In this document: in pieces, positions 22,496 through 64,000 of the stretch
How positions within the stretch are numbered: position 1 is the stretch's first letter
How the letters are laid out: the number at the start of each line of letters is the position of its first letter
DNA from: Candidatus Harrisonbacteria bacterium
GTDB taxonomy: Bacteria; Patescibacteriota; Minisyncoccia; UBA6257; 1-14-0-10-44-23
Direction of reading: 5' to 3'
Length of the DNA stretch: 64,000 nt
Assembly: GCA_023255625.1 (NCBI GenBank)
Contig: JAHFLF010000001.1
Span: forward strand, 431,771-495,770
Notes under the pieces: generated by a model
Told to the model about the DNA's origin: nothing
Databases searched by the model: none
What the model saw: the letters and a program-made list of their open reading frames with translations, nothing else
Translations under genes and position numbers: made by a program

Positions 22496-22501
22496 GAATC
22501 A

Positions 22502-34345: not shown

Positions 34346-34352
34346 TAATGGC

Positions 34353-35653: not shown

Positions 35654-35758
35654 TAATTGCCCAGACGGCACCGTCCATATTTTTCTGGTGAAAAATCGGT
35701 CTATACTCTCGCGCCGTCGCGCTGCGAGAATTGCCGCTAGGGCAATTATTAGACGCGC
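35645..35758. repeat. structured repeat family 'GACGGCACC-core', copy B
   Basis: Flanks gcgtctaataattgccc / gggcaattattagacgc (includes the ftsX stop codon). Core nearly identical to copy A. Confidence 0.75.
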
Positions 35759-35796
35759 AAACTAGACCTCCTTCATAAAAAAGCGAGGGATTTTAC

Positions 35797-35927
35797 TCAA
35801 GATGAGCAGGGATACCTTTTACTGCTCCCTATGAGAAAAATTTTGCTGGTTTAGAAATTAGAAATTGAAAATTAGAGATTCCCGCAGGGTTTTTAACCGC
35901 AAAAGACGCGGTTAAAAACCCTGCGGG
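35797..35927. repeat. composite: CAAGATGAGCAGGGATACC hairpin motif, GAAATT module, and 20-bp terminator hairpin overlapping the stop of the converging surface-protein gene
   Basis: caagatgagcagggataccttttactgctccctatg (also at 31498..31535). gtttagaaattagaaattgaaaattagagatt. cccgcagggtttttaaccgc aaaagac gcggttaaaaaccctgcggg. Confidence 0.6.
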
Positions 35928-37495
35928 TCGTATCCTTCTTCTGCCGGAAGAATAGTTTTTTCTTTTTTAAATTTCCAAATTGCCAGCCAGCCGAACAAAG
36001 CAATGACGGCCAGGATGCCGCCGCCAACTCCAAATCGCAGTGCAATTTGTTTTTTGATGACGGTTATGCTTTGAGATGGAGCTACTTTCGTGTAGGTTTC
36101 ATCTGCACCAACACCGTAAACGATCACATGATGTACGCCGGAGGTCAGCCCGGGAATTTCTTTAGAATGTTCTCCGGCCGGTACTCTGATGCTCCTTTCT
36201 AAGTTATGGTCATAATCAAAAATATCGATGCGATAACCATTCATCGGTTCGCCATTTGACGGGCTTTGCCATATAAAATTAGTGTTATTACTGCGCATGC
36301 CCGGGCCAATAGTTAATTCCTGGCTCTGGCCGATTGTGACAGGAGCATTTCCGCTTCCTGGCGCTCCTGTATTCGAGTTTGTAGAAGCAGACTGCCCACC
36401 GGATGAGGGCGCTGCTGTGTTAGAATTTGCCGGCGGATTTGTCGATTGATTTGTTTGGGCTGGAGTATTTGTATTAGTTGGTGTAGTTGGCTGGGTGTTA
36501 TTGGCCGGTGGTTGCACTGCGTTGTTAGTCGGCTGCTGGCTGTTTGCCGGCGGTTGCGTATTAACGGGAGTTTGCTGGGAGGCGATTGGAGTGCTGAAGC
36601 CGATTGTGTATGTGGTTAAGATTATGCTTTCTCCCTGGTTGCTAAAAATATCTGCAAAATAATTTACTCCGGGTATCAGCCCGTTAACTGTGATTGTGTG
36701 TTCGAGTTCCAGGGTCGGGTCTGTGGCGCTCGTAAAAATAAAATTTGGATTGAGTTGTGTTCGGATAGAGACACGGGAGTCAGCGGCGATGTTTGTTGTC
36801 CAGGAAAAAGTTGCCGAGGTTGCCGTAGTGTTTACGACACGAGCGTTGGTTATAGTAACATAGGACTGCTGCGGTGTGCTGGCGACCGGGGTTGAGCTGG
36901 CGGTAATTTGATCCGGATCCGTAAAAATGTAGTCCGCGCCGCTCTCTGCGGGCGCATAGAGGGCAAGTTTAAAGGTAAAGGGTTGTAGAGCCGGCCCGAT
37001 TTTAGCCGCGCCATGACTATATTGGCTAACAAAGGTTTGGTTGTGATCAAGCGTTAAAATCCGGTCAGCGCTATACAGGCCAAAGTTGGGCAAATCTGAT
37101 TCTATCTGGAGCGTATATGTTCCTGTGGCGCTAATTGCTATCGGTGTAGTCAGATTCACATGGAATTTGTATCCTCCGGGAATTTCGGCCAGGTGAGGAA
37201 GCGTAACATTGCGTACGGCAAGCTGATGAACCTCATCAGAGAGTCGTAATGTGAGGGGCCCATCCTCGCCAGTGTTATCAACCCAGAGATCAAAACCCGT
37301 CATTAAAGCGTTTACTCCAGGCGCAAAAATTTCATAGACCGGCCCAGCAGCCGAGGAGAATTCAAACCGTTGCGAGGCCCAGCCGTCTGGGGCAAAGGCG
37401 AAAAAGACAGCGTCGGCGGCGAGCGCCGGAGCAGTAGACAGTAGTAAGTAGACGGTAGACAGTATGAGAATAAAAAAGCGAGATGGGCGGTTCAT
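35912..37495 (-). CDS. cell-surface protein: signal peptide, beta-rich (FN3-like) domains, Thr/Pro/Gln/Asn-rich linker, C-terminal TM anchor
   Basis: N-terminal signal peptide, long low-complexity PTQ/N linker, C-terminal hydrophobic helix followed by KFKKEK. Confidence 0.55.
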   Translation of the reverse strand: MNRPSRFFILILSTVYLLLSTAPALAADAVFFAFAPDGWASQRFEFSSAAGPVYEIFAPGVNALMTGFDLWVDNTGEDGPLTLRLSDEVHQLAVRNVTLPHLAEIPGGYKFHVNLTTPIAISATGTYTLQIESDLPNFGLYSADRILTLDHNQTFVSQYSHGAAKIGPALQPFTFKLALYAPAESGADYIFTDPDQITASSTPVASTPQQSYVTITNARVVNTTATSATFSWTTNIAADSRVSIRTQLNPNFIFTSATDPTLELEHTITVNGLIPGVNYFADIFSNQGESIILTTYTIGFSTPIASQQTPVNTQPPANSQQPTNNAVQPPANNTQPTTPTNTNTPAQTNQSTNPPANSNTAAPSSGGQSASTNSNTGAPGSGNAPVTIGQSQELTIGPGMRSNNTNFIWQSPSNGEPMNGYRIDIFDYDHNLERSIRVPAGEHSKEIPGLTSGVHHVIVYGVGADETYTKVAPSQSITVIKKQIALRFGVGGGILAVIALFGWLAIWKFKKEKTILPAEEGYDPQGF

Positions 37496-37523: not shown

Positions 37524-37647
37524 GTATCGGCCCCGCGGTTTTGCCGCAGACCGGCACCGGCTATCTTTTTCTGCTGAAAAAGCGCCTGCTCTCGGCCTCC
37601 TCGGCCTGCGAGAGTGCCGCCTAGCGGCAAAACCGCTGGGCCGATAC
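37524..37647. repeat. structured repeat family 'GACGGCACC-core', copy D (diverged)
   Basis: Flanks gtatcggcccc..gcggttttgccgc / gcggcaaaaccgc..gggccgatac. Core gaccggcaccggctatctttttctgctgaaaaagcg... with compensatory changes in the inner hairpin (ctttttc/gaaaaag versus atttttc/gaaaaat). Confidence 0.65.
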
Positions 37648-44704: not shown

Positions 44705-44828
44705 GCAGTTTGCCGTCAGACGGCACCGGGGTTATTTTTCTGCTGAAAAATCCCCCTACATCTCCCGCCGTCGCGGTCCGATAGTTGCCGCGTAGACGGC
44801 AAACTGCAGGTAAAAAATTAACGGCTCG
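44705..44828. repeat. structured repeat family 'GACGGCACC-core', copy C
   Basis: Flanks tttttacctgcagtttgccgtc / gacggcaaactgcaggtaaaaaa. Lies between convergent genes and overlaps the 3' end of the dgkA-like ORF. Confidence 0.7.
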
Positions 44829-53919: not shown

Positions 53920-55158
53920 ATGGCCGAAGGCGAAGCAAAAATAGACATGACAGTTATTGAGGCGGAGGTGCAAAAGCACCCTCCGTTTCGTTCGATTATT
54001 AAAATTGTCGATGCTCTGGTGGCACAGGCCTTTTTTGCCCGCAGTTCTGATATCCATCTTGATCCAGAGGAGAAGAAGTTGCGCGTCCGGTTTCGGATCG
54101 ATGGCGTGCTGCACGATATCTATTCATTTCCGAAAGAGCTGCATCAGGAAATTATTACCCGTATTAAAGTGCTGGCCGCGATGCGCACCGACGAGCACCA
54201 GGCCGCGCAGGATGGTCGCATGCGAATTGCAATTCCAGACAGCCCGCCGGTGGATGTGCGTGTTTCTATCACGCCGACTTATTTTGGCGAGAACTGCGTG
54301 ATGCGACTTTTAATCAGCCGCGCCGATGATTTTACGCTGAAGGATTTGGGCTTTTCCCCGCATAATTTAGCGATTATTGCCAAGGCCATGAAAAAGCCGT
54401 ATGGGCTGATGCTGGCGACCGGGCCGACCGGGTCTGGTAAGACGACGACTTTGTATATGATTCTTAAAGAATTAAATAAGCCGGAGATTTCGATTATCAC
54501 AATTGAAGATCCGATTGAGTATTCGCTGCCGGGCGTTGATCAAATCCAGGTTAACGCTAAAACCGGACTAACTTTTGCGAATGGTTTGCGTTCTATCTTG
54601 CGTCAGGATCCGAACACCGTGATGGTCGGTGAAATTCGTGATGGGGAGACGGCTTCGATTGCCGTAAACGCCGCCATGACCGGCCACCTGGTGCTTTCAA
54701 CTTTACATACTAACGATGCGCCAACTACCTTGCCGCGATTACTTGATTTAGGCGTTGAGCCATTCTTAATTGCCTCAACTTTGAATATCGCCATCGGTCA
54801 GCGTTTAGTGCGCACAATTTGCACTGATTGCAAAGTGAAAAAAGAATTAACCGATGTTGAACTTAAAACATTGACCGAGGCGTTCCCAGCGGAGTTGCTG
54901 CAGAATAACCGGGCTTTTTATCGGGGAGAGGGCTGCAAACGGTGCAGCAGCAGTGGTTATCGCGGTCGAGTTGGTATTCATGAGGTATTGGAGATTAACG
55001 AAGAACTGCGCGTTATGATCATGCGCCGGGCGAATGCCGACGAGATGCGTGCGGCGGCGATAAAACAAGGTATGATTACTATGACGGTAGATGGTTTTAA
55101 TAAGGCAGTTGCCGGACTAACGACTCTCGAAGAGGTGCTACGCGTGTTCCATGAGTAA
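53920..55158 (+). CDS. pilB: type II/IV secretion system ATPase (GspE/PilB family), short form
   Basis: Walker A GPTGSGKTT, Asp box, Walker B, His box, and tetracysteine CTDCK..CKRC motif region. Confidence 0.85.
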   Translation: MAEGEAKIDMTVIEAEVQKHPPFRSIIKIVDALVAQAFFARSSDIHLDPEEKKLRVRFRIDGVLHDIYSFPKELHQEIITRIKVLAAMRTDEHQAAQDGRMRIAIPDSPPVDVRVSITPTYFGENCVMRLLISRADDFTLKDLGFSPHNLAIIAKAMKKPYGLMLATGPTGSGKTTTLYMILKELNKPEISIITIEDPIEYSLPGVDQIQVNAKTGLTFANGLRSILRQDPNTVMVGEIRDGETASIAVNAAMTGHLVLSTLHTNDAPTTLPRLLDLGVEPFLIASTLNIAIGQRLVRTICTDCKVKKELTDVELKTLTEAFPAELLQNNRAFYRGEGCKRCSSSGYRGRVGIHEVLEINEELRVMIMRRANADEMRAAAIKQGMITMTVDGFNKAVAGLTTLEEVLRVFHE

Positions 55159-55261
55159 TCGCTAATATCGCAAATAAAGGGCAGGAATATCGCCAATGGA
55201 TGCATGATCAAGAAGTAATCGCTAATATCGCAAATAAAGGGCAGGAATATCGCCAATGGAT
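55154..55261. repeat. two direct ~47-nt units (agtaatcgctaatatcgcaaataaagggcaggaatatcgccaatggat), left flank of GxxExxY cassette
   Basis: Unit 1 overlaps the pilB stop. Unit 2 supplies the ATG of the cassette gene. A diverged third copy lies at ~53748..53795 upstream of pilB. Confidence 0.8.
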
Positions 55262-55648
55262 ACTGCTGAAAATACTCTTGTTTTCCCAGAATTAAGCTAT
55301 CAAGTTGTTGGAGCGGCTTTCGATGTATTTAACGAGCTTGGTTGGGGATATAAAGAAAAAGTATATGAGCAAGCTCTTTTGTTAGAGCTGCAAAAATTTA
55401 GGTTGCCGATACGATCTCAAGTTTACATTCCATTACAATATAAAGAAAATATAATCGGTAAGTTTTTCGCAGATATTATTGTTGACGATAAAATTTTGAT
55501 TGAGCTTAAGATTGTTTCGCAATTGGGTTATGTACATATCAAACAAATATATCCTTATCTAAAAGCTGCTAGGTTTAAACTGGGTATTTTGATATACTTT
55601 ACTAAAGATGGTGTTAAGTACAGGAGAATTTTGAATCCGGAAGTTTAA
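55256..55648 (+). CDS. GxxExxY family protein (second paralog)
   Basis: ELSYQVVGAAFDVFNELGWGYKEKVYEQAL contains the GxxExxY signature. Inserted between pilB-like and pilC-like genes. Confidence 0.75.
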   Translation: MDTAENTLVFPELSYQVVGAAFDVFNELGWGYKEKVYEQALLLELQKFRLPIRSQVYIPLQYKENIIGKFFADIIVDDKILIELKIVSQLGYVHIKQIYPYLKAARFKLGILIYFTKDGVKYRRILNPEV

Positions 55649-55692
55649 TTTGCGATATTTTTAAATAATTAGCGATATTAGCGATTACTCCT
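55649..55692. repeat. inverted copy of the 'gtaatcgctaatatcgc' unit (right flank of cassette)
   Basis: tttgcgatatttttaaataattagcgatattagcgattactcc; reverse complement contains gtaatcgctaatatcgc. Confidence 0.7.
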
Positions 55693-55694
55693 TT

Positions 55695-56960
55695 ATGAAT
55701 GAAGAAATAATAAAACCAAAAGCAACACCGCAGTCGGCGGCGGAACCGGCTCAACAATCGGCCCTACGAGACGCCAATGAGGTTGTTCAGCAAAGTCCAG
55801 TGGCGCAGCCGGCGGCAGGTGAGGTTTCGGCCGGCCAGCAGGTGCGTGATGATGAACAGGGTGCGAAAAAAGTCAAAGGAAAATTTAGTTTCAAGTCTTT
55901 GTCCGGCATGAGTTTTTTGCGGGTCTCTCTGGAGGAAAGGGTACTTTTTGCCAGGCAGCTTTCTGTGGGGATTAAGGCCGGCCTTTCGATGCAGGACAGC
56001 TTGCAGTTGCTTGTTTCACAGACCAAGTCGGCTTCGCTCAAAAAAATTCTCAAAACTTTGTTGGATGATACAGCCAACGGAATGTATCTTTCAACGAGTT
56101 TAGACAAGTATGCGCAGATTTTTGGCCAGCTATTTATTAACATTGTCCGGGTTGGTGAACAAAGCGGTACGCTAATTGAAAATTTGACTTATCTGGCCGA
56201 GGAGCTCAAGAAAAAGCATGAACTAGTCAGCCGAGTTCGTGGAGCGCTGATTTACCCGGGTGTAATTTTATTTGCGACGATCGGCATCGTTGTAACCCTC
56301 ATGGTGGCCGTTTTTCCAAAAATCTTGCCGGTGTTTGCCGGGCTGAACATCAAGCTGCCCTTAAGTACCAGGATTTTGATTGCCTCGACCAATTTTTTAA
56401 CTACATATACTTTTTGGCTGATTATCGGCGTGCTGGTTTTTCTGGTCGCTATCTATTTTGTCGCCAGACAGGAGTGGTTCAAAAACTTTTTTGACCATGC
56501 GATCATGCATGTTCCGGTTTTCGGTTCGATGGTTATGAAGATCAATTTGGTAAACATTGCCCGTGTGCTCGGACTACTCCTAAAAAGCGGTTCGCAGATT
56601 ATTGAGGCGGTGAATATTACCGCCAGCGCTCTCGACAATCGCTATTATCGGCGCGAGCTCAAGACGGCGGGGGAGACGCTCCGGCGCGGTGATTTTTTCT
56701 CGGTTTACCTGGGCAAGAATCCCAATCTTTTCCCGCCGATTTTTACAAACATGATCCATGTTGGTGAAAACACCGGCAATCTTTCTGAAAACTTGGTTTA
56801 TCTGGCGACTTATTATGAAGAGGATGTAGACAATTTTCTAAAGAATTTAAACAGTATTATTGAGCCGGTTTTACTGCTCTTCATGGGACTGCTCGTTGGT
56901 TTCATGGCGCTTTCAGTTATTACGCCAATTTACTCGATTTCTCAATCACTGACCCTATAA
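55695..56960 (+). CDS. pilC: type II secretion system F family protein (PilC/GspF platform)
   Basis: Two T2SSF repeats with three TMs. GEQSGTLIENL and GENTGNLSENL motif pair. Confidence 0.85.
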   Translation: MNEEIIKPKATPQSAAEPAQQSALRDANEVVQQSPVAQPAAGEVSAGQQVRDDEQGAKKVKGKFSFKSLSGMSFLRVSLEERVLFARQLSVGIKAGLSMQDSLQLLVSQTKSASLKKILKTLLDDTANGMYLSTSLDKYAQIFGQLFINIVRVGEQSGTLIENLTYLAEELKKKHELVSRVRGALIYPGVILFATIGIVVTLMVAVFPKILPVFAGLNIKLPLSTRILIASTNFLTTYTFWLIIGVLVFLVAIYFVARQEWFKNFFDHAIMHVPVFGSMVMKINLVNIARVLGLLLKSGSQIIEAVNITASALDNRYYRRELKTAGETLRRGDFFSVYLGKNPNLFPPIFTNMIHVGENTGNLSENLVYLATYYEEDVDNFLKNLNSIIEPVLLLFMGLLVGFMALSVITPIYSISQSLTL

Positions 56961-56963: not shown

Positions 56964-59225
56964 ATGAAAATTTTCAATTTAGTTGGGAATTGGAAATTAT
57001 CAATTAAAAATTTTGCCGCTAAGCGCGGCGGTTTTTCTTTGATTGAGATTCTAATCACAATCGTAATTTTTATTATTTTGACCGGCGGTATTTATTTGAC
57101 TTACGCCAATTTGCTGGAAGTAATTGCGAAGACTCGTAATCGGACACTGGCCACCTCTCTGCTTAACAAAGAGATAGAGTATGTTCGCAATTTAAAGTAT
57201 GACGATGTGGGCATTGTTGGCGGCGCTCCAGCCGGCCAGATTCCGGCGACCAAGACAGTTACCTATGAAGGGCAGCAATTTACCGTCAGCGCCTTTGTGC
57301 GGAATATTGACGATGCTTTTGATGGCAGAGCAACCGGGACAACGCCGACCGACACCGCTCCGGGCGACTATCGACTCGTCGAATTACAAGCGAATTGTAC
57401 AACTTGCTTCAAATTTAAACCAGTTATTATTACAACCAGGGCTGCGCCGCAGAATTTAGAAAGCAGCACGAAAAACGGATCGCTGTTTATTAATGTATTT
57501 AACGCCAGTGGAAATCCGGTTGCGAACGCGAATATTCTCGTCAAAAATACCATTTTAAATCCGACTATCACGATTAACGATACGACCAATAGCAGCGGCA
57601 CGCTCCAACTGGTGGATATTCCGACCAGCACGAACGGTTACCAGGTATTTATTTCTAAAGACAATTATTCTTCTGCGCAGACTTATGCGGTGAGCAGCAC
57701 GAATCCTAATCCTGCGCCGAGACATGCGACTGTCGCGAGTCAGCAGGTTACTTTGCTTAGCTTTGGTATTGATAAGGTCAGCCAGATCGATGTTCAGACC
57801 CAGGATCAGTACTGCGCGGGGGTGCCCAATATTGATTTTACCCAGAACGGAGCCAAGTTGATCGGGGTTAGCCCGAATGTACTAAAGTATAGTAAGTCAT
57901 TTGTTACCGATTCCGGCGGGCAGGCCTCGCGTACAGGGCTAGAATGGGATAACTATACTTTTATTAATACAGATACGGGGTTTGATGTCGCCGGCAATGT
58001 TCCATCCTTGCCGATTACCCTGAATCCAAATACAACAACCAGCATTGCATTTTTGATGGAGCCCAAGATCAGCTCCTCCAGCTTGTTGGTTTCGACGGTG
58101 GATAGTTCCGGTGCGCCGATTTCCGGAGTTTCCGTAAAAATCGATAAAATCAGCGGGGGCTTTAGTACCAGTTCGGCTCAATTCACCATCACTAGTTTTG
58201 GTAATTTGCCATATAGCAACTCTGTCGGCATTACTACCTCCGGCGGTTTAAGATTGTCTCCAGGAAGTGCGCCATATCCAACCACCGGCGGCCCTTATTA
58301 TCGGACTTTCGCGCCAGTTGATTTTGGCACATCTACCGTTGATTACACCGCGATCTCTTGGAATCCGTCCAGCCAACCGGCCGGAACTTTGGTCAGAATT
58401 CAACTTGGCGCCACTAATGACGGAAATTCACCGGCAACTTTTACCGGTCCGGACGGTACCAGTAATTCTTATTACACCGTTAGCGGCGGTGCTCTTGGCG
58501 CCAGCTACGACAATAAACGTTACTTAAGCATGAAGATTTTTTTGAGCACGACTGACGCAAATGTCTCTCCTTCGCTGACTTCTGTAACCTTAACCTATGT
58601 CGGGCCATCGGTTGTTTTTACGGATACGAAGCAGACCGGTCAAAAAAAGTTTGTCGTTACCGACTGGTCCGGAAATGCGTACGCCAACCAAGATGGCAAC
58701 ATTCAATCAGAGACAGTGCTCGGCCGCCTGACTCTAAAAAATAGCGGCGGTCAATATCCAACCAGCACTAATAGCTATCTTGAATCAAATACTATAGACT
58801 TCGGCACCGCTAATATTTCTTACAAATCATTAAGCTGGAACCCGACCAGCCAGCCGTCGGGGGCAACCTTAAAATTTCATTTGGCCGGCGCCAGTAGCGT
58901 TAGCGGGCCATTCACCTTCACCGGGCCCGACGGCACTAGCAGTACTTATTACACGACTAATCCGGTCAATCTGCCAACAACCTATAATGCCAACCAATAT
59001 CTTCGCTATAAGGTTTTTCTTAACACAACGAATCAAACAGTAACCCCGACCTTAAATGACCTTGCTATAGCATTTGAATCCGACTGCGTGCCCAGCGGAC
59101 AGGCCTTTTTTCCGGGACTATCAACAGGAAATTATCTGCTGACCCTAAACAAATCCGGACACTCAACCGTGATCCTCCCATTTACTATTGTCTCCGGCTG
59201 GCAGGAAAAAAAGATAACCTGGTAG
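56964..59225 (+). CDS. large prepilin-type N-terminal cleavage/methylation domain protein (753 aa)
   Basis: Leader MKIFNLVGNWKLSIKNFAAKRGG|FSLIEILITIVIFIIL, then a ~700-aa Thr/Ser/Asn-rich beta-type domain with internal repeats. Confidence 0.65.
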   Translation: MKIFNLVGNWKLSIKNFAAKRGGFSLIEILITIVIFIILTGGIYLTYANLLEVIAKTRNRTLATSLLNKEIEYVRNLKYDDVGIVGGAPAGQIPATKTVTYEGQQFTVSAFVRNIDDAFDGRATGTTPTDTAPGDYRLVELQANCTTCFKFKPVIITTRAAPQNLESSTKNGSLFINVFNASGNPVANANILVKNTILNPTITINDTTNSSGTLQLVDIPTSTNGYQVFISKDNYSSAQTYAVSSTNPNPAPRHATVASQQVTLLSFGIDKVSQIDVQTQDQYCAGVPNIDFTQNGAKLIGVSPNVLKYSKSFVTDSGGQASRTGLEWDNYTFINTDTGFDVAGNVPSLPITLNPNTTTSIAFLMEPKISSSSLLVSTVDSSGAPISGVSVKIDKISGGFSTSSAQFTITSFGNLPYSNSVGITTSGGLRLSPGSAPYPTTGGPYYRTFAPVDFGTSTVDYTAISWNPSSQPAGTLVRIQLGATNDGNSPATFTGPDGTSNSYYTVSGGALGASYDNKRYLSMKIFLSTTDANVSPSLTSVTLTYVGPSVVFTDTKQTGQKKFVVTDWSGNAYANQDGNIQSETVLGRLTLKNSGGQYPTSTNSYLESNTIDFGTANISYKSLSWNPTSQPSGATLKFHLAGASSVSGPFTFTGPDGTSSTYYTTNPVNLPTTYNANQYLRYKVFLNTTNQTVTPTLNDLAIAFESDCVPSGQAFFPGLSTGNYLLTLNKSGHSTVILPFTIVSGWQEKKITW

Positions 59226-59234
59226 CATAATTTT

Positions 59235-59882
59235 ATGAAGTGCTTGTTTAGAAATTCAAAATTAGAAATTAAAAATTCCGCTGCTAATGCAGCGGCCGGG
59301 TTTACTCTCATCGAGATAGTTGTCTCGATGGCAATTACCGTCGTGATCGCTATTTTACTGGTGCGCTTGGCTAGAGATACAACGGATTCAACTCTGCGAT
59401 TTAATAATCAACTGGTAACTCAACAGCAAATTGAACAGACTCTGCAACTTATAGTGCCCGAGATTCGCAGTATCTCGCAGGGGATAGACGGTTCTTATCC
59501 AATTGCCGCGGCTGCCAGCAGCAGTTTCCAGTTTTTTAGCGATGTTGACCGAGACGGGAAGTTGGATAAAGTCCGTTATTTTATGAATGGAAATATATTA
59601 CAAAAGGGCATAATTAAACCGGCGGGTAGCCCGGCCTCGTATCCGACTAGCACAGAGATTATCAGCGATTTGGTCAGCGGTATAGTTTCCGGAACGCAGG
59701 TTTTTTCGTATTACGGCAGCGCGGCAACCAGCAGTGGCTCTACACCCTTACCTTCACCGATTAATGTCCTGTCGATTAAAACAGTGAAGGTAACGATTGT
59801 CGCAGACCAGGGACTCCCGGGTAAACCGTCGCTTGCGGGCGCAGAGACGAGTGCGAATATTAGGAACCTTAGGTACAAGTGA
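59235..59882 (+). CDS. pseudopilin (prepilin-type N-terminal domain protein)
   Basis: Leader MKCLFRNSKLEIKNSAANAAAG|FTLIEIVVSMAI (class III signal peptide with Glu+5). Confidence 0.7.
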   Translation: MKCLFRNSKLEIKNSAANAAAGFTLIEIVVSMAITVVIAILLVRLARDTTDSTLRFNNQLVTQQQIEQTLQLIVPEIRSISQGIDGSYPIAAAASSSFQFFSDVDRDGKLDKVRYFMNGNILQKGIIKPAGSPASYPTSTEIISDLVSGIVSGTQVFSYYGSAATSSGSTPLPSPINVLSIKTVKVTIVADQGLPGKPSLAGAETSANIRNLRYK

Positions 59883-61453
59883 ATATGAGACAATTTTCAA
59901 TTTTCAATTTTTCCGCCAAAGGCGGATCCGCCTCGGGCGGACAATTTTCAAACAATGACTCAATTCTAAAATTAAGGCATTTAAAATTGTTTAGAAATTG
60001 GAAATTAGAAATTAAAAATTCCCGCGCACGCGTTGCGTGCGCGGGACAGCTCTCACTCCAGGTGCTGATTATCGGTTCGATCGCTACGGTGCTCATCGCC
60101 GGTTTTACAATGTGGGCGCGGGTTTATGTAACTAATGTGCTGCGTGGTTCTTTGAAAGCGCAGGCCTTTACTATTGCCGAGGCCGGGATCGAGTATTATC
60201 GGTGGCACCTGGCTCACGCGCCACAGGATTTTAAAGATGGCAATTCAGTTGCCTCCAGTACTTATGTTCATCCCTACTTTGATAAGAACAATAATCGTCT
60301 TGGACAATTTGATCTTACTATCACCGCGCCGGCGAGCGGTACTACGATTATGACTATTCAATCAACCGGCAAAATAGATACGGATCCGACTATTAAAAAG
60401 ATTATCAAAGTGAAGATGGGGTTGCCGTCTTTTGCCCGTTATTCAGTTGCCAGCAACAGCAATATTCGGTTTGGTAGCGGTACTGATGTGTATGGCGTTT
60501 TGCACAGTAATGGCGGAATTCATTTTGATGGCGTCGCCCACAATGTTGTTACTAGCGCGGTCTCAGCATATGACGATCCGGACTATAGCGAGCCAAATGC
60601 TTTTGGTGTTTATACGCGGGTTTCGCCACAGGATCCATTTCCGCCGGCGGCTGTTCCGGTGCGCAATGATGTTTTTATGGCCGGTCGGCAATTTCCTGTT
60701 CCGGCGGTTGATTTCAACGGTATTACCGCAAATCTTTCCGCATTAAAAACGCTTGCAACTTCAACCAGCGGCTACTACCGAGCCGGCTCTGGCGCAAAGG
60801 GCTACGATCTTTTACTTAAGACAAATGACAAATTTGATCTCTATCGTGTAGACAGCGTTACCGGACTCTCCGGAAATTGCTCTAATAACAGCTACCAGGA
60901 GTCGGGCTGGGGGAGCTGGTCGATTGCCAGCGAAACGCTTCTGGCTAGTAATGTTAATTTTCCGGCCAACGGGATTATCTTTATCGAAGACGATCTTTGG
61001 GTGCGCGGCCAGGTCAATACCGCCCGATTGAATATTGCCGCCGGCCGTTTTCCGGTTAATGCTTCAACTTATGCCAACATTACAACGAATACAAATTTAC
61101 TGTATACAAACTATGACGGGCAGGATGTCATTGCTCTGACTTCGCAAAACAATCTTAATGTCGGTTTATTCAGTGATGATGTCTTTAAAATTGATGCGGC
61201 GCTCGTTGCTCAAAATGGACGCGTCGGCCGATATCATTACGCGCCACAATGCGGATCTACAGCGACTCGCAGCCAGCTGACTTCTTACGGAATGATTGGC
61301 AGCAACACCCGTTATGGCTGGGCCTGGACTGATGGCACCGGTTACCAAACTCGTACTATCAATTATGACGGGTACCTGCTTTATGGTCCGCCGCCAAGTT
61401 TTCCGACAACTGCGAGTCAGTACGATATCATTAGCTGGGATGAGGTGAAGTGA
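59879..61453 (+). CDS. pilus-associated hypothetical protein with pseudopilin-like N-terminus; start codon uncertain
   Basis: In-frame LFRNWKLEIKNS leader module, then ..ACAG|QLSLQVLIIGSIATVLIAGF. No ATG near the leader (candidates: TTG at 59987, GTG at 60062, or ATG at 59885 reading through repeats). Confidence 0.5.
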   Translation: MNMRQFSIFNFSAKGGSASGGQFSNNDSILKLRHLKLFRNWKLEIKNSRARVACAGQLSLQVLIIGSIATVLIAGFTMWARVYVTNVLRGSLKAQAFTIAEAGIEYYRWHLAHAPQDFKDGNSVASSTYVHPYFDKNNNRLGQFDLTITAPASGTTIMTIQSTGKIDTDPTIKKIIKVKMGLPSFARYSVASNSNIRFGSGTDVYGVLHSNGGIHFDGVAHNVVTSAVSAYDDPDYSEPNAFGVYTRVSPQDPFPPAAVPVRNDVFMAGRQFPVPAVDFNGITANLSALKTLATSTSGYYRAGSGAKGYDLLLKTNDKFDLYRVDSVTGLSGNCSNNSYQESGWGSWSIASETLLASNVNFPANGIIFIEDDLWVRGQVNTARLNIAAGRFPVNASTYANITTNTNLLYTNYDGQDVIALTSQNNLNVGLFSDDVFKIDAALVAQNGRVGRYHYAPQCGSTATRSQLTSYGMIGSNTRYGWAWTDGTGYQTRTINYDGYLLYGPPPSFPTTASQYDIISWDEVK

Positions 61454-61623
61454 GTTATGCACAGCCCTGCAAGATTGATCTAATTTCATCTGCTATTATT
61501 AAAACAAGTCTGACCTGTTCCTGCAGGGCAGGATGCCTTACTTATACGGGGTAAGGAAAGCGTTTATTACTAACATTAACCGTATCAGTCGAATTAGAAT
61601 ACTTTAATTACAAATTTATTATT

Positions 61624-62070
61624 ATGAAATCCAACAAAGGTTTCACGCTCATCGAGCTCCTCGTCGTTATCGGTATTATTGCAATTTTGGCTTCAGTGGT
61701 CATCGTCGCCCTGAACCCGGCCCGGCAGTTTGCCCAGGCCCGCAACACGCAGCGCAGCGCAAATATAAATGCAATTTTGAACGCAATCGGCCAGAACATG
61801 GCGGACAATCGTGGCCTCTGGAATTCCACTGGCTGTGGCACCGCACTTCCGGCTTCGATCTCTTACATTGGTTCGGCCAGCACCAGCATCGCGGGCTGCT
61901 TAGTTTCCGACTATCTGCCGAGCATGCCTTATGATCCAGATGGCGGTTACTACACAGACGCTACAGATTATGGCGCTTTCTACCGTGTGATGCAGGATGC
62001 AGTTACCGGCCGCGTGACGGTTGAGGCTCCAAAGGCAGAACTTGGCGCCGTTCTTTCCGTAACTCGTTAA
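61624..62070 (+). CDS. type IV pilin (major pilin candidate)
   Basis: MKSNKG|FTLIELLVVIGIIAILASVVIVALNP: short leader, Phe1/Glu5, hydrophobic alpha1; C-terminal Cys pair. Confidence 0.85.
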   Translation: MKSNKGFTLIELLVVIGIIAILASVVIVALNPARQFAQARNTQRSANINAILNAIGQNMADNRGLWNSTGCGTALPASISYIGSASTSIAGCLVSDYLPSMPYDPDGGYYTDATDYGAFYRVMQDAVTGRVTVEAPKAELGAVLSVTR

Positions 62071-62094
62071 GCGGTTTGTTTCGTATCGCGTTAT

Positions 62095-62128
62095 TAACAC
62101 AAAGACCCCTGGCTGGGGTCTTTGTGTT
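62095..62128 (+). terminator. terminator hairpin after the first pilin gene
   Basis: aacacaaagacccc tggct ggggtctttgtgtt (14-bp stem), followed by a TATAAT box (ggtataattg) for the next pilin gene. Confidence 0.65.
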
Positions 62129-62161
62129 AATGGTATAATTGAATAAAACATTAATTTATTT

Positions 62162-62635
62162 ATGTCGATATCAACTGTAAACTATAAACTACTAAATCGT
62201 CGCCGCGGTTTCACCCTCATCGAACTTCTCGTCGTTATCGGTATTATTGCCATCTTGGCTTCAGTGGTCATCGTTGCCTTGAATCCGTCTCGCCAGTTTG
62301 CCCAGGCCCGCAACACGCAGCGGCTTTCGAACATTAACGCGATTTTAAATGCGGTTGGACAGAATATGGCAGATAACAGCGGCAAGTGGTCTTGCTCCGC
62401 GCCGCTGCCCGGTTCAGAAACTGTTATCGCTTCTGCTGGCGGCGCGGACATAGCTGATTGCCTTATTCCTGATTATCTACCATCTATGCCATATGATCCG
62501 CAGAGCGGTACTTGGGCTAGCTCGACAAGTTACAATACCGGTTATAGCATTTTCCAGACCGGCGGGAGTACTGGCCGGGTTACCGTGAAGGCGCAGGGAC
62601 AGGAGCTTGGCGCTAATTTGATTGTAACACGGTAG
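62162..62635 (+). CDS. type IV pilin paralog
   Basis: MSISTVNYKLLNRRRG|FTLIELLVVIGIIAILASVVIVALNP; about 110 nt near-identical to the first pilin at the 5' end; C-terminal Cys pair. Confidence 0.85.
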   Translation: MSISTVNYKLLNRRRGFTLIELLVVIGIIAILASVVIVALNPSRQFAQARNTQRLSNINAILNAVGQNMADNSGKWSCSAPLPGSETVIASAGGADIADCLIPDYLPSMPYDPQSGTWASSTSYNTGYSIFQTGGSTGRVTVKAQGQELGANLIVTR

Positions 62636-62646
62636 CATTTTAACAC

Positions 62647-62718
62647 GCAGCATCCGGCTTACTTTTCACAGCCGGGCTCACCCTACGGGATGGCTATGAA
62701 AAGTAAGCCGGATGCTGC
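62647..62718. repeat. long hairpin H4 (GGGCTCA-loop family)
   Basis: gcagcatccggcttacttttcacagcc [gggctcaccctacgggatgg] ctatgaaaagtaagccggatgctgc. Confidence 0.7.
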
Positions 62719-62732
62719 GAAGATAGATTAAT

Positions 62733-63368
62733 ATGAAAAATCGTAAAGACTACATTGCCGATAAGAATTTATTTGATAAAGACCTCGAGGGTTTGTCTTT
62801 GAAGATGTTGGAACAGCATTACAAACTCTACGAGGGCTATGTAAAAAAGAGCAATGAGATTCAGATAAAGGTTGAGTCGGCGGACAAGAGTGAGGCCAAC
62901 GGCGTGTATAGCTTCATCGGCGAGTTAAAGCGCCAGGAGACTTTTGCGGTCAATGGTATGAAGCTGCACGAGGTGTACTTCGGTCATTTGCAGGGCGATG
63001 GCAAACCAGCAGGCGAGCTGCTCGCAATGATTGAAAAAGATTGGGGATCGCTCGACGAGTGGAAAAACGAGATGATCGCGACCGGCATGAGTGCCCGCGG
63101 CTGGGCGATTACCGCGTTTGATTACCGCGATAATCGGTTGCATGTTTACGGCTCTGACGGCCACAATGTGGGAGCGGTCTGGGGGGCCGCGCCGGTAATC
63201 GTTTTAGATGTCTACGAACACGCTTACTTTATTGATTACGGTATCGGTCGCAAAGCGTACATTGATTCATTCTTTAAAAATTTAGACTGGAACTTTGCCA
63301 ACAAGATTGCTCTTGAATACGGTTTAGCTGCGCGGTATGGGAAGTTGCATGAGCAGAACGGAGCTTAG
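62733..63368 (+). CDS. Fe/Mn superoxide dismutase family protein (divergent N-terminus)
   Basis: C-terminal DVYEHAYFIDYG matches the SOD D-x-W/Y-E-H-A-Y-Y signature with Asp/His ligands. The N-terminal HH.KHH block is reduced to QHY. Confidence 0.55.
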   Translation: MKNRKDYIADKNLFDKDLEGLSLKMLEQHYKLYEGYVKKSNEIQIKVESADKSEANGVYSFIGELKRQETFAVNGMKLHEVYFGHLQGDGKPAGELLAMIEKDWGSLDEWKNEMIATGMSARGWAITAFDYRDNRLHVYGSDGHNVGAVWGAAPVIVLDVYEHAYFIDYGIGRKAYIDSFFKNLDWNFANKIALEYGLAARYGKLHEQNGA

Positions 63369-64000
63369 ACCTTCATCGGTTTTTTGCCGTCTGGCTGAAT
63401 CTCGGTGATTTTAAGTTCACCATCTTGCATTGTTGCTCCGAGCAATTTGACCCTTTTCCCTTCGCGGCCGGGAAAGTTCATCGTCCAACAGCCCGGTTCG
63501 GGATTAAACGCTCTAATTTTATTGTAAATTATTTCCGGTTTATCGTTAATCATATCTACCTGACCGTCTGCGGTCGTGAATTTTCGCGTGAAGGTTGCTT
63601 TGGCATGATCCTGCTCCTGCGGTTTAATTTCGCCCTTTAGGAATTTGGGTATCGTTTCAACAAGGAGTTCACCTGCAATTTTTGAAAGTTTGTGGCCCAA
63701 TGTTTCATTCGTGTCCTCTAAGGCGATTTGCGATTTGCGCTGCGCGAGAATCGGCCCGTTATCCATTTTTGCATCCATCTGATATAAGGTAACGCCAGTT
63801 TCAGTTTCGCCGGCCAGGAGCACGGATTGAATCGGGCTGGCGCCGCGGTAGAGCGGGAGGAGCGAGGGGTGCACACCGATTGTGCCCAGCCGGGGGAGAT
63901 TGATGATGCTGTCCGGGATGATGTGGGGGTAGCCCATGACCACGGCGAGGTCTACCTCGCCAATTTCTAATTTTAAATTTTCAATTTCTAATTTTTCCGG
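63365..64000 (-). CDS. fmt: methionyl-tRNA formyltransferase, 5'-partial (continues beyond window edge)
   Basis: VHPSLLPLYRGASPIQ and C-terminal Fmt domain. The reading frame stays open upstream of the track's GTG start and runs through the GAAATT-module in frame (..PEKLEIENLKLEIGEVDLAVVMGY..). Confidence 0.75.
   Translation of the reverse strand, partial: PEKLEIENLKLEIGEVDLAVVMGYPHIIPDSIINLPRLGTIGVHPSLLPLYRGASPIQSVLLAGETETGVTLYQMDAKMDNGPILAQRKSQIALEDTNETLGHKLSKIAGELLVETIPKFLKGEIKPQEQDHAKATFTRKFTTADGQVDMINDKPEIIYNKIRAFNPEPGCWTMNFPGREGKRVKLLGATMQDGELKITEIQPDGKKPMKV

Follow-up and report, generated by a model that had tools for sequence, protein, structure and literature searches.

An AT-rich palindromic repeat of the CPR bacteria and its in-frame copies in pilus genes and fmt

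The window, a 64-kb stretch of Candidatus Harrisonbacteria DNA, carries an AT-rich GAAATT-type module that forms inverted repeats between genes and also lies in frame within three pilus genes and fmt, where our translations agree with those of the initial annotation. The locus raises the question of what this module is, whether its coding copies are translated, and why they persist. The underlying observation is confirmed, and its first interpretation, a repeat recruited into pilin leaders and inserted into Fmt, is partly supported.

The repeat family and its copies in the window

The GAAATT module is a single arm of an AT-rich palindromic repeat family that extends across the ultra-small bacteria of the CPR (Candidate Phyla Radiation, Patescibacteria). 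Its unit is the 7-nt heptad N-R-AAATT, and the usual module consists of TTGTTT, four heptads and a GC hairpin. The complete element comprises a GC hairpin, a T-rich arm of about four heptads, AAACAA, a loop, TTGTTT, an A-rich arm of about four heptads and a second GC hairpin. A genome scan placed it, among the matches listed, at more than 117 genome loci in many CPR classes. Exactly four heptads were present in 97 of 127 modules sampled from genome contigs among these matches, and the consensus extends upstream as aaaTT....aaTT..aaaTTGTTT. Loop lengths between paired arms are bimodal (15-118 nt or 386-458 nt). At eight loci, including that of the window, the long loops contain 23S_rRNA_IVP-like ORFs, and the "empty" (ORF-less) palindromes occupy short intergenic gaps. 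23S_rRNA_IVP is a four-helix-bundle protein with no known role in mobility. Within an element, the variable dinucleotides of one arm are anti-correlated with those of the other (identity 0.128 vs 0.296 with shuffled partners), indicating that the arms are not simply a conserved stem. A transposase and a target-site duplication were sought for the element, and neither was found.

Using the pattern GAAATTAGAAATTAAAAATT with up to three mismatches, we identified 13 matches in the window vs 0.04 expected, a number reached by none of 100 shuffles; these reduce to about ten copies. The "empty" reference palindrome (20924-21032; arms 20924-20966, minus strand, and 20997-21032, plus strand) fills the mreB/mreC intergenic gap, with the mreB stop codon inside its left arm. 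It folds at -19.1 kcal/mol into helices of 5-8 bp, which are interrupted by a single mismatch in each heptad. The mini-ORF MMQCLNWKILKLFRNCKL*, originally placed at 20973, starts at 20965. Between ftsE and ftsX, an ORF-bearing reference copy (34283-34735; arms 34283-34318, minus, and 34700-34735, plus) encloses a 114-aa 23S_rRNA_IVP gene at 34353-34697 (Pfam PF05635, 6.2e-17), and arms flank an IVP gene in this way at seven other loci. A solo arm (35848-35881, plus) with a 20-bp hairpin (35848-35927; -38.7 kcal/mol, z = -8.2) lies at the 3′ end of the convergent gene 35912-37495 and has the form of a terminator on the minus strand. The ENA contig (L001) and the Logan contig (L002) are identical across 4710 nt, repeats included; thus, the repeats are not an assembler artefact.

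The element is also found inside rRNA genes, namely the 23S genes of L075 and L038 and the 16S genes of L074, L055 and L060, where copies lengthen helices; in L055, a copy of 165 nt stands in place of the loop of a 16S hairpin (fold, -68 kcal/mol). Short ORF-less insertions and IVP ORFs have been recorded previously in CPR rRNA genes (PMC11270868). Furthermore, 23 of the 127 sampled modules lie in frame inside conserved or housekeeping proteins (LepA, PheS, RsmA, PilD and others), flanked in each direction by 50 or more open codons. Pfam domains span the inserts in LepA (two genomes, same site), PheS, RsmA and peptidase A24, and in RsmH the MraW domain match is split in two, flanking the insert. 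The copies in housekeeping genes are net insertions of about 20 aa. These in-frame copies bear out the proposal of a dispersed insertion-type repeat tolerated in frame. In its behaviour, the element resembles an rRNA intervening sequence (IVS) or a MITE.

Reading frames and pilus leaders

Because 7 mod 3 = 1, all three frames of a heptad array pass through the same codon phases, and any of these frames can be read through the array except where the heptad in the T-N-R phase yields TAA, TAG or TGA. A copy is open only if the dinucleotide of that heptad is not AA, AG or GA; a single open frame is thus not a property of the module, as had been assumed. The coding copies carry the non-stop variants GG, CA, TA and TG in the T-N-R phase; in the copy at 59244, the heptad in the stop-prone phase has the rare dinucleotide CA, giving TCA (Ser). 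Stop-type dinucleotides, which make up 77% of the intergenic background, are depleted in leader arrays only in the stop-prone phase (7/52 vs 23/59 and 29/61 in the other phases).

The first pilus gene (56964-59225, plus) encodes a large pseudopilin-like protein of 753 aa with the 23-aa leader MKIFNLVGNWKLSIKNFAAKRGG|FSLIE. A degenerate A-rich heptad array at 56983-57012 (plus; TTGGGAATT GGAAATT ATCAATT AAAAATT; family D1, 76%) reads ..VGNWKLSIKN.. in this gene. Pfam N_methyl matches aa 20-44 with 24.1 bits (cut-off 21.2), CarboxypepD_reg also matches, and the sole in-frame start 5′ of the G|F site is the ATG at 56964. The second gene (59235-59882, plus; 215 aa) is minor pilin-like, with the 22-aa leader MKCLFRNSKLEIKNSAANAAAG|FTLIE and an N_methyl match at aa 19-42. 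Its canonical half-element at 59244-59277 (plus; TTGTTT + AGAAATT CAAAATT AGAAATT AAAAATT) reads LFRNSKLEIKN and is 94% complementary to 34283-34318 (inverted repeat I7). Leaders in its 46 homologues are mostly 6-14 aa, and long ones occur only where repeats read through.

The third gene (59885-61453, plus; 522/524 aa) has a PilX-like N-terminus (..AG|QLSLQVLIIGSIATVLIAGF), which reads ..LFRNWKLEIKNSRARVACAG|QLSLQ from 59879 or 59885. Pfam gave no match for its product; nevertheless, orthologues retain the site (..ADAG|QLSLQVLILG in L121 and ..NSDG|ALTIQVLLV in L122). This gene contains a complete palindromic element in frame at 59891-60020 (plus; -36.4 kcal/mol, z = -4.7), matched by the search pattern as an interrupted copy (59891-59957, minus) and an arm (59987-60020, plus). 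It is composed of a T-rich arm (59891-59911), two inserted GC hairpins, CCGCCAAAGGCGG and CCGCCTCGGGCGG (30 nt, 59912-59941), the inner motif CAATTTTCAAACAATG, a loop, TTGTTT (59987-92) and four heptads (59993-60020). Only 4 of 216 frames are stop-free in 36 complete elements, and two of the three open palindromes are this one and its L122 counterpart, both open in the frame of the downstream gene, vs about 1% of frames in other elements.

A GC hairpin lies directly 3′ of every in-ORF copy (-11.8 to -25.5 kcal/mol; z = -2.6 to -5.2 for three of the four). The weakest, GCCGC-TAAGC-GCGGC at 57015-57029 (plus; -11.8 kcal/mol for the whole 51-nt stretch, z = -0.97), encodes AAKRG. It is followed along the operon by CCGCTGC-TAAT-GCAGCGG at 59278-59295 (plus; SAANAA; -13.7 kcal/mol, z = -2.6) and CCCGCGCACGCG-TTG-CGTGCGCGGG at 60021-60045 (plus; SRARVACAG; -25.5 kcal/mol, z = -5.2). 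The last had been equated with the hairpin at 35841-35927; the two are the same type of feature with different sequences (60021-45 vs 35881-35927).

In the 56964 and 59235 genes, the N_methyl motifs start just 3′ of the module, and the stretch from the module to the G|F site contains no in-frame start codon (ATG, GTG or TTG). In syntenic relatives that lack the repeat, the leaders are shorter and have the same first residues. L121 has no repeats at any of the three pilus junctions nor in fmt, and its leaders read MKFFNHTHSIGSRRG|F (15 aa, orthologue of the 56964 gene) and MKAFISKKSSRG|F; L122 differs in its arrangements at these junctions. Since the leaders of repeat-less pilin orthologues are 6-15 aa long, those of 22-23 aa are repeat-derived expansions. 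Considering metagenomic arrays of at least three heptads beside a G|F site, the pilin frame was stop-free in 37/37 with a gap of up to 32 nt (13/37 and 16/37 in the other frames) and in 25/25 with a gap of up to 11 nt (11/25 in each other frame), with a start codon within the gap in just two, so that these arrays are probably translated. This agrees with the proposal of a long class III leader made in part of the module. Such a leader is unusual in comparison with textbook type IVa pilins, but not in CPR metagenomes, where heptad-encoded leaders like MKIENCKLKIKKG|FTLIE are common (at least 120 loci among the matches listed; roughly 5-8% of bystander pilins).

The copy in fmt

The methionyl-tRNA formyltransferase gene fmt (63365-64000, minus) continues past the window; the full 293-aa gene is L001:14131-15012(-), and its product matches PDB 1FMT with E = 6.5e-41. 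Five heptads (AAAAATT AGAAATT GAAAATT TAAAATT AGAAATT; 63962-63996, on the minus strand, the fmt sense strand) read EKLEIENLKLEI within ..QPEKLEIENLKLEIGEVDLAVVMGYP.., and the adjoining hairpin GGCGAGGT-AG-ACCTCGCC (63944-63961, minus; -13.9 kcal/mol, z = -3.5) encodes GEVDLA, a turn and the start of a β-strand. The initial annotation regarded this copy as an insertion in a short loop. Nevertheless, it aligns column for column with an ordinary segment of close orthologues (..KPSDVIPQLKALNADFFVV..) and is about 3 aa shorter than its E. coli counterpart. In the structural model (mean pLDDT 91.5; block means 83 and 88 across residues 81-100), the EKLEIENLKLEI segment forms helix 88-95, followed by a turn into strand 100-103. 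Judging from these alignments, the Fmt module is a length-neutral, residue-for-residue replacement of surface helix α3 with no net insertion; orthologue comparison therefore upholds an expansion for the pilin leaders and not for Fmt.

The module state is scattered on the Fmt tree: Fitch parsimony requires six or more state changes in 100/100 bootstraps. The hairpin is retained by paired changes (GAG/CTC to CAG/CTG in L244), and in L003 and L247 it includes some G.U pairs, valid on the sense strand only. The equal-length swap, the tree scatter and the paired hairpin changes appear to point to a templated or selected process; a simple insertion does not fit.

Explanations for the in-frame copies

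In the best-supported reading, to which we assign a probability of roughly 0.6, the element is an IVS/MITE-like CPR repeat that persists as tolerated selfish DNA and is translated in the pilus leaders and fmt. Three consecutive pilus-operon genes begin 5′ of, or within, repeat arms. Translation of arm and hairpin would therefore yield leaders that are rich in Lys and extend to the G|F or G|Q site, with a length of 22-23 aa or, for the third gene, up to 55 aa. Prepilin peptidase would then remove the repeat-encoded leader, and because leader sequence presumably matters little, leaders may offer a safe site for landing and expansion. In fmt, array and hairpin would have taken the place of a variable surface helix and the following turn at equal length, their translation happening to give an acceptable amphipathic helix. 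Selection would chiefly keep the frames open, and the hairpin may also be kept at the nucleic-acid level. We infer translation, cleavage and RNA processing of the module-bearing genes from sequence.

The arms might instead be primarily cis-acting expression signals, overlapping ORFs merely because CPR genomes are compact, which we consider unlikely. They could act as Rho-independent terminators (antisense or bidirectional), as processing sites for RNase III or RNase E/Y, as AU-rich enhancers of translation initiation or as promoters. Within the pilin and fmt transcripts, the single-stranded A-rich stretch and the GC hairpin behind it would serve as a processing or stability element. Correia elements, which carry promoters and undergo RNase III cleavage, and the terminator-like SPRITE elements are precedents (PMC10969869). 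The arm sequence and fixed four-heptad length are very strongly conserved across the superphylum, outer arm ends are flush with start or stop codons (about 24 lie within 0-15 nt of an ATG, and about 34 between -16 and +16 nt of a stop), and arms immediately precede tRNA, elongation-factor and ribosomal-protein genes (ORFs read by eye as EF-Tu, EF-G, S7 and L11); together, these features could mean a functional signal. Hairpin plus T-rich arm is also terminator-like, antisense at 60046-60020 and 59295-59278 and on the plus strand at 63944-61, the copy at 35848-35927 lies exactly at the expected terminator position of the convergent gene, and the fmt hairpin is preserved through compensatory and G.U changes. 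On the other hand, promoters or terminators would be harmful inside 16S/23S genes and the 23 conserved ORFs, modules point about evenly toward gene starts (42) and ends (51), and most window copies are operon-internal (mreB/mreC, ftsE/ftsX, the pil operon and fmt). In addition, a sigma-70 scan flagged no sense-strand promoter in the arms themselves, copies are absent from the same junctions in close relatives, and no Rfam family matches the element.

Less probable still is that leader arrays are contingency loci, in which slippage by one heptad switches pilus genes on or off and three units change only leader length. The unit is not a multiple of 3, and the arrays are found early in the coding sequence of surface-filament genes, like the CTCTT repeats in Neisseria opa signal peptides. 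Many metagenomic leaders have 4-5 perfect units, such as (TCAAATT)5, (CAAAATT)5 and (CGAAATT)5, and arrays are homogenised locally (GAAACTA x2 and GAAGCTT x2 in L122 fmt). In L141 and L214, about 700 nt of upstream sequence is the same and the arrays differ in a single ATTCGAA unit, L141 being in frame with an ATG and L214 having no in-frame start; however, L141 is a 1.2x-coverage contig with an apparently chimeric 3′ part, and array length is unchanged in seven other near-identical locus pairs, as it is between L001 and L002. Moreover, the window arrays are imperfect, the 59244 copy lacks identical adjacent units, and switching would be senseless in fmt, rRNA and many housekeeping genes. We give very little credence to DNA-uptake signals, akin to DUS/USS of Neisseria and Haemophilus, spread by biased type IV pilus/competence uptake and homologous replacement. 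Pili and competence proteins are a general feature of CPR genomes, the motif is both conserved and over-represented, with inverted pairs between genes and in-frame copies in tolerated protein segments, and the tree-scattered, equal-length replacement in fmt is exactly what uptake-bias molecular drive predicts. Nevertheless, density is only about one copy per 6 kb, unrelated heptad families (ACGAATA, GTACTTA, CGCTACA) share the architecture, housekeeping copies are insertions rather than replacements, and fmt alleles, 65-77% identical in protein outside the module, are probably too diverged for homologous recombination. Equally improbable, and largely refuted already, is that the modules are untranslated upstream DNA with true starts downstream. 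Gene callers do differ on the first gene (753 aa vs 728 aa in the Logan call), and long-ORF bias is common beside stop-free repeats, as in L098, where an open palindrome precedes a clear rpsD ATG. Yet the 728-aa start removes the G|F site and shifts the Glu from mature-pilin position +5, and the lack of starts in the gap, the placement of the N_methyl matches and the open pilin frames all argue against it.

The CPR element resembles the rRNA IVS in interrupting 16S/23S genes and carrying an IVP ORF in its long loops, and it resembles the Rickettsia "selfish DNA inside genes" (RPE) in lying in frame within protein genes. The in-frame CPR repeat is apparently an undescribed counterpart of the latter.

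Architecture and distribution of a heptad-built palindromic element

A search with GAAATTAGAAATTAAAAATT, allowing up to three mismatches, yielded 13 matches in the window (G+C content, 47.6%), where 0.04 were expected; based on repeat finding and direct reading, these matches resolve to approximately ten copies of a single module, in which TTGTTT precedes some four heptads (7 nt each) of the form N-R-A-A-A-T-T. The sequence of the module regions is the same in a second assembly (L002, a Logan contig). The copies include an empty palindrome that occupies the mreB-mreC gap (20924-21032), a pair of arms on either side of a gene located between ftsE and ftsX (34353-34697), and a solo arm with a strong hairpin (35848-35927); no copy in the window lies within an rRNA gene. 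Three pilus genes (56964, 59235 and 59885) and fmt, which runs off the end of the window and is complete on ENA contig ERZ27280176 k141_3786079 (L001), to which the window belongs, contain copies inside their ORFs, each followed directly on its 3' side by a GC hairpin (57015-29, 59278-95, 60021-45 and 63944-61). Translation confirmed the initial annotation in all four of its in-ORF readings. The hairpin at 60021, which it had equated with that at 35881, is only analogous, since the two sequences differ, and the mini-ORF that it started at 20973 begins at 20965. The idea that a single frame is permitted was not borne out: because 7 mod 3 = 1, each frame runs through the same codon series, NRA-AAT-TNR-AAA-TTN-RAA-ATT, and a module copy is closed only if AA, AG or GA occupies the heptad that falls in the TNR phase.

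Scanning one genome per species with the pattern TTGTTTRRAAATTNNAAATTNNAAATT, we identified at least 117 matching loci, nearly all of them in Patescibacteria and spread over many classes, which among the matches listed include Moran-, Magasanik-, Zambryski-, Kuenen-, Berkel-, Roizman-, Levy-, Doudna- and Saccharibacteria. Within the same matches, exactly four heptads are present in 97 of 127 instances, and 77% of the heptads have AG, GA or AA as their variable dinucleotide. A conserved stretch, aaaTT....aaTT..aaaTTGTTT, lies upstream of the module. Inverted pairs are frequent and are arranged as T-rich arm, AAACAA, loop, TTGTTT and A-rich arm, with arms of approximately 35 nt that are 83-94% complementary. 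The loop length is bimodal (15-118 nt or 386-458 nt), and the element measures approximately 100-140 nt, or approximately 450 nt with an IVP ORF. In eight loci the long loops contain homologous ORFs of 113-124 aa, including the window ORF at 34353-34697, which matches Pfam 23S_rRNA_IVP (6e-17). The family and its architecture are demonstrated, as are its intergenic, rRNA and coding locations.

In 13 paired elements (from L030, L033, L049, L050, L078, L083, L088, L091, L096, L105, L122 and the window), the dinucleotides of the two arms of one element agreed with an identity of 0.128, compared with 0.296 for shuffled partners, one arm being of GA type and the other of AG type. The arms thus avoid a shared dinucleotide, and the stem therefore contains one mismatch per heptad. 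A conserved RNA stem between the arms was rejected, as there is no simple covariation and the variable dinucleotides are anti-correlated. Rfam at gathering thresholds returned only four tRNAs over the whole window.

Among the matches listed, the module lies inside rRNA genes at five loci, in the 23S genes of L075 and L038 and the 16S genes of L074, L055 and L060. The 165-nt copy of L055 takes the place of the 16S hairpin loop near position 1160. All parts of the architecture are present in it (hairpin, T-rich arm, loop, A-rich arm, hairpin), and it folds as a single extended stem with a free energy of -68 kcal/mol. In CPR rRNA genes, 23S_rRNA_IVP ORFs and short insertions without an ORF have been recorded, and the insertions have been proposed to be IVSs of the RNase III type (PMC11270868); in Coxiella, the IVS that includes an S23p ORF is viewed as selfish (PMC4990558). 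Judged by its sequence, the element described here is an IVS-type or MITE-like palindromic repeat. No target-site duplication was seen by eye at the 16S insertion or in the junction comparisons between the syntenic relative L121 and L001. A parent transposase was not identified either; the sole associated ORF is 23S_rRNA_IVP, which is not known to have transposase activity.

Under strict settings, tandem segments in the window occur at period 7 only, with none at periods 5, 6, 8 and 9 and none in shuffled sequences. A perfect (CGCTACA)x4 array of another heptad type, located at 12399-12434, ends 3 nt before an ATG at 12438. Tandem 62-nt units of ACGAATA-type heptads at 22267-22518 and 26910-27019 form an inverted pair that is 92-94% complementary, with 4.4-4.6 kb and five genes between the arrays, and this pair resembles a larger composite element belonging to another heptad family. 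Genes encoding PDDEXK_3 (PF13366) are flanked by inverted short-period arrays of AATCGCT and TTCGTAT type in a layout like that of the 23S_rRNA_IVP cassette; the first (55256-55648) lies between arrays at 55142-55261 and 55668-55696, and the second is found just beyond the window, upstream of fmt (L001 15012-15460). A dispersed palindrome, ..GACGGCACCG..TTTTTCTGGTGAAAAATCGG.., is unrelated to the heptad module and is present at 13454-13572, 35641-35761, 37524-37647 and 44709-44755; two of its copies are 97% identical over 77 nt, and one adjoins the solo arm at 35848. Finally, the hairpin core GGCCGGGCTCACCCTGCGGGATGGCC is located at 9709-9744, 18884-18919 and 62665-62700 inside longer perfect inverted repeats, the third copy being a terminator-like hairpin after a pilin gene (62646-62719).

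Leaders of the pilus genes

The three pilus genes are located directly downstream of the genes encoding T2SSE (53920-55158) and T2SSF (55695-56960), with two canonical pilins further downstream, at 61624 and 62162. The products of the large gene at 56964 and of the 215-aa gene at 59235 match N_methyl with 24.1 bits (aa 20-44) and 21.8 bits (aa 19-42), respectively, against a cut-off of 21.2, and in both proteins the motif starts directly after the module and its hairpin. Both genes have the prepilin motif (Gly at -1, F/M, a hydrophobic helix of approximately 20 aa and Glu at +5), and neither contains an in-frame start codon between the module and the predicted cleavage site, G|F. An alternative gene call of 728 aa for the large pilus gene would delete the cleavage site. 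The leaders in the window are basic (net charge +3 to +5) and, at 22-23 aa, are not short. Type IVa pilin leaders typically comprise 5-10 aa.

In 46 homologues of the 215-aa protein, the leaders are mostly 6-14 aa long (MRRTSG|F, MKKNSG|F, MKALFIKKSSKG|F), and long leaders are present only where a repeat is read through, as in P0127 (..GNWKLEIGN..), P0147 (..LFRNWKLEIGNSQAG|F) and P0134, in which the reverse arm reads FQFLI; others contain different repeat families. Orthologues without the repeat have leaders of 6-15 aa. The position of N_methyl after the module, the missing intervening start and these shorter leaders together uphold the view of the initial annotation that the module serves as a pilin leader. 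L121 lacks the repeat at all three junctions and shares its first residues with the window proteins (MKFFN.. versus MKIFN.., MKAF.. versus MKCLF..); compared with these, the window leaders are thus expanded by 8 and 10 aa, and presence and absence of the element among syntenic relatives is demonstrated. In L122, another syntenic relative, the small-pilin leader contains the full palindrome with a CCTGCCTGCCGGCAGGCAGG hairpin, and the large-pilin leader contains a different heptad family, GTACTTA.

The third gene, at 59885, has no prepilin motif (G|QLSLQ, with Gln and not Glu at +5) and no Pfam match. Its whole palindrome, including a 30-nt insertion of two hairpins, is open in frame, and that of its L122 orthologue is likewise open; as only 4 of 216 frames are stop-free in 36 complete elements, this argues that the leader may reach 55 aa. 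Initiation at an alternative start codon, the TTG within the TTGTTT at 59987, would shorten it to 21 aa.

We scanned metagenomes for two heptads within 2-32 nt of GGN-TTY-ACN-YTN-ATH-GAR and obtained at least 120 loci. Among the matches listed, at most 11 nt separate the array from the Gly codon in 64 of 123 genes. Arrays of at least three heptads with a gap of up to 11 nt are stop-free in the pilin frame in 25/25 cases, compared with 11/25 and 11/25 in the other frames; with a gap of up to 32 nt, the corresponding values are 37/37, 13/37 and 16/37, and a start codon is present in the gap in only 2/37 (all among the matches listed). Stop-type dinucleotides are rarer specifically in the stop-prone phase. 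The open pilin frame and this depletion indicate, at the level of codon pattern, that the leader arrays beside G|F are translated, and the preservation of the ORF in leaders is demonstrated. A typical heptad leader is MKIENCKLKIKKG|FTLIE, and the median heptad-encoded leader comprises 14 aa among the matches listed. Approximately 5-8% of "bystander" pilins on the same contigs also have strict arrays.

The second major pilin of the window has a 16-aa leader, MSISTVNYKLLNRRRG|F, that includes a degenerate heptad array of a different type (AAACTGT/AAACTAT/AAACTAC) at 62170-62200, and its orthologues in L121 and L122 have leaders of approximately 8-9 aa. Counting this repeat-type array, four of the five pilin-like genes of the operon may have repeat-derived leaders.

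In-frame copies in Fmt and other proteins

In Fmt, whose homologues are labelled Paceibacterota or Parcubacteria, the module had been interpreted as an insertion into a short surface loop. The alignment with 33 orthologues does not support this reading, as EKLEIENLKLEIGEVDLAVV fills exactly the same columns as, for example, EKPSDVIPQLKALQPDFFIV, and the segment is approximately 3 aa shorter than in E. coli 1FMT. In the AlphaFold model (mean pLDDT 91.5), the array forms helix 88-95 and the hairpin-encoded GEVD-LAVV forms the turn into strand 100-103, which demonstrates structural compatibility at the level of the model. The array therefore replaces a segment with no net insertion in this 34-sequence comparison.

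The array state is discrete; it reads KLEIxNxKLEIGE[VI]D[LF]A and recurs in orthologues of 47-67% identity, and its heptad DNA is kept in L003, L246 and L247. In neighbour-joining trees built without the array region, array and plain states are interspersed. A single origin was rejected, as at least six state changes are required in 100/100 bootstraps and the nearest neighbours of array-bearing proteins are plain ones (e.g., P0006 with P0032, 77%). A recurrent origin is likely, although not proven, because the Fmt radiation is star-like (65-77% identity). Simple insertion cannot explain a recurrent, length-neutral replacement; ectopic or inter-lineage conversion is possible, as is a recurrence that is only apparent through the star phylogeny. 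The fmt hairpin shows a double compensatory change between L244 (GGCCAGGT..ACCTGGCC) and L001 (GGCGAGGT..ACCTCGCC), and in L003 and L247 its pairing is kept by G.U pairs that are valid in the sense strand only.

Further repeats were observed in fmt. A 13-aa insert, LPASGGAKGDQGG, located beyond the window (L001 ~14880-14920), is present only in this one of 34 Fmt sequences and is modelled as a disordered loop (pLDDT <50); the small CCGCC-NNN-GGCGG hairpins that encode it belong to the type seen at 59912-59941 in the window. The N-terminal extension MNSYVRN, likewise beyond the window (L001 14990-15012), is encoded by the TTCGTAT-type array of the neighbouring PDDEXK_3 element, and CTA is found where orthologues have the ATG of MKFVFFG; the fmt start has therefore moved into a repeat. 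A second hot spot occurs in L022 and L247, where the T-rich arm is read as ..ISNFQFPISN.. or ..FSISNFQFS.. in a loop matching residues ~170-180 of the window Fmt (..IALEDTNETL..). An 18-20-nt perfect GC palindrome, CTGCCTGCCGGCAGGCAG, is present in unrelated CPR genomes (fmt of L245, L122 9965-9990 and L020); it is read in frame as LPAGRQ within Fmt (P0016, P0019), lies within the pilin-leader element in L122 and beside an intergenic module in L020, and may be a second mini-element that targets heptad arrays.

Of 127 sampled modules, 23 (18%) lie within ORFs with at least 50 codons on each side. Their hosts are housekeeping proteins, namely LepA, PheS, RsmA, RsmH and the A24 prepilin peptidase, to which direct reading of the sequences added PolA, LeuRS, MetRS and TsaD; one CPR PilD (L034) contains an in-frame array. 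The usual product is ..FPISNFQFP(ISKQ/N)..KSKIQNS.., in which the T-rich arm comes first and the A-rich arm follows with its stop-prone heptads changed to CA (Ser); in genomes other than that of the window, copies inside ORFs have their T-rich arm on the sense strand. The proposal that the element is tolerated in frame is borne out by the proportion of modules inside ORFs, by Pfam domain envelopes that span the inserts in host proteins and by pilin orthologues without copies. In two different CPR genomes (L036 and L110), the palindrome is in frame at the same LepA position, between the ..GITIK.QP.R.. strand and LNL(I/V)DTPGH, echoing the recurrence at the fmt site.

A protein-database search with a synthetic array peptide gave only 34 candidates and seven weak matches and was uninformative as to the full set of host proteins. 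A literature search on a CPR promoter motif, CPR pilin leaders, in-frame CPR repeats and the peptides ISNFQF and SNFQFP returned nothing relevant, which is not proof of novelty because most subscription-journal papers fall outside it. The heptad element occurs CPR-wide and is apparently undescribed.

Relationship to known systems and alternative explanations

The closest parallel of the in-frame CPR copies, by analogy, is the family of Rickettsia palindromic elements (RPEs), which Ogata et al. reportedly described in 2000 in frame within protein-coding genes. RPEs are reviewed as selfish palindromic repeats inserted in frame in such genes (PMC10969869). As with RPEs, the CPR family is dispersed, also intergenic and present as many in-frame copies in housekeeping genes that are unrelated to one another; these copies occupy surface or variable positions and leave the ORF intact, and there are orthologues without the insert. 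Unlike RPEs, it resides in hosts of an unrelated lineage (CPR), is shorter and is built of 7-nt heptads around an AAACAA/TTGTTT core, so that no sequence relationship is expected; it additionally occurs as rRNA IVSs, can include a gene for 23S_rRNA_IVP and provides prepilin leaders as half-elements, and the change in fmt is length-neutral and not an insertion. With the bacterial rRNA IVSs of Coxiella and Leptospira (PMC4990558) and the CPR rRNA insertions (PMC11270868), the element shares an inverted-repeat stem at an rRNA helix tip, an optional four-helix-bundle ORF in the loop and a sporadic, selfish-looking distribution. However, most of its copies lie outside rRNA, either intergenically in conserved operons or within protein genes, where they are translated. 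For the translated copies, the RNase III excision that defines IVSs could not apply without destroying the mRNA.

Correia, ERIC and SPRITE, which are bacterial MITEs (PMC10969869), are likewise small, ORF-less, bounded by terminal inverted repeats and located beside or within genes; they too are present or absent among relatives and form RNA hairpins that are candidate RNase substrates, with terminator-like halves. The CPR element differs in being superphylum-wide and not genus-wide, in its imperfect heptad arms, and in that neither a target-site duplication nor a parent transposase was identified. The leaders resemble class III signal peptides in their G|F(T/S)LIE site, hydrophobic helix with Glu at +5, basic character and operon with a PilB-type ATPase and PilC, except that the sequence of the window leaders is dictated by a repeat element and GC hairpin. 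In the opa genes of Neisseria, CTCTT repeats constitute simple-sequence contingency loci in the region coding for the signal peptide. The CPR arrays similarly are tandem repeats with a unit length indivisible by three, placed where genes for a surface structure encode their leaders, but they are short (3-5 units), often imperfect and also present in housekeeping genes and rRNA. The element is most suitably classed among the RPE-like in-frame palindromic repeats, as a new variant built of heptads, and is also an IVS-type element. Its coding copies would persist as tolerated selfish DNA filtered for open frames, and leaders would be favoured sites because the prepilin peptidase removes them. Taken as a whole, the initial annotation stands for the pilin leaders and the in-frame tolerance and falls for the insertion into an Fmt loop.

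A cis-regulatory role, as terminator or processing site, is kept as a rival. Its appeal lies in the fixed geometry of the modules, which abut genes flush, occur in front of tRNA and translation genes and take a terminator-like form. The copy at 35848-35927 fits a GC hairpin with a U-rich tract on the minus strand, and the in-ORF copies of the window have the hairpin and T-rich tract on the antisense strand. The rRNA and in-ORF copies speak against such a role, as does the lack of an orientation preference (42 modules facing gene starts versus 51 facing ends). The same rRNA and in-ORF copies count against a promoter, which was rejected: a sigma-70 scan for TTGACA-like and TATAAT-like hexamers 16-18 nt apart found 15 sites, with 12.4 expected by chance, and none of them falls within an A-rich arm on the sense strand. 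Slippage by 7 nt as a means of phase variation is also retained, on the strength of one polymorphism. Upstream of a GspG-like pseudopilin, the metagenome contigs L141 and L214 are identical over approximately 700 nt, and a single ATTCGAA unit of the leader array distinguishes them: with three units the array is in frame with an ATG, and with two units no in-frame start is present. Nevertheless, L141 has a coverage of 1.2x and a chimeric-looking 3' part, seven other near-identical pairs have no unit change (1/8 differs), and the window arrays are imperfect and identical in L001 and L002, with no switching observed for this genome. An uptake-signal-like drive is kept as a further rival.

We consider it rather unlikely that the arrays and hairpins constitute a CPR-wide dual-use nucleic-acid device, which would punctuate rRNA and operon transcripts and control pilus genes from their leaders, with a templated process behind the recurrent length-neutral fmt conversion. 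Control would operate through on/off slippage of 7 nt, since the L141/L214 pair suggests phase variation, or through a selected RNA hairpin, since the fmt hairpin has compensatory changes.

As an RPE-like repeat, the element would be the first large-scale counterpart of Rickettsia RPEs outside that genus. CPR bacteria (Patescibacteria) account for a large part of bacterial diversity, possess tiny genomes and are regarded as poor in mobile elements. One repeat family links three features so far considered apart, namely their short rRNA insertions, their many scattered "23S rRNA IVS protein" genes and odd low-complexity protein stretches such as ..KLEIKN.. and ..ISNFQFPISKQ.., and it affects essential proteins (LepA, PheS, Fmt, aminoacyl-tRNA synthetases and PilD). 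In CPR genomes, these stretches influence where gene starts are called, how protein lengths are distributed in statistics and how structures are predicted. Pili have a central role in the epibiotic lifestyle and DNA uptake of CPR bacteria. A repeat element dictates the leader in a sizeable minority of CPR pilins, and the arrays, if they slip or are processed, would provide a regulatory handle on pilus expression.
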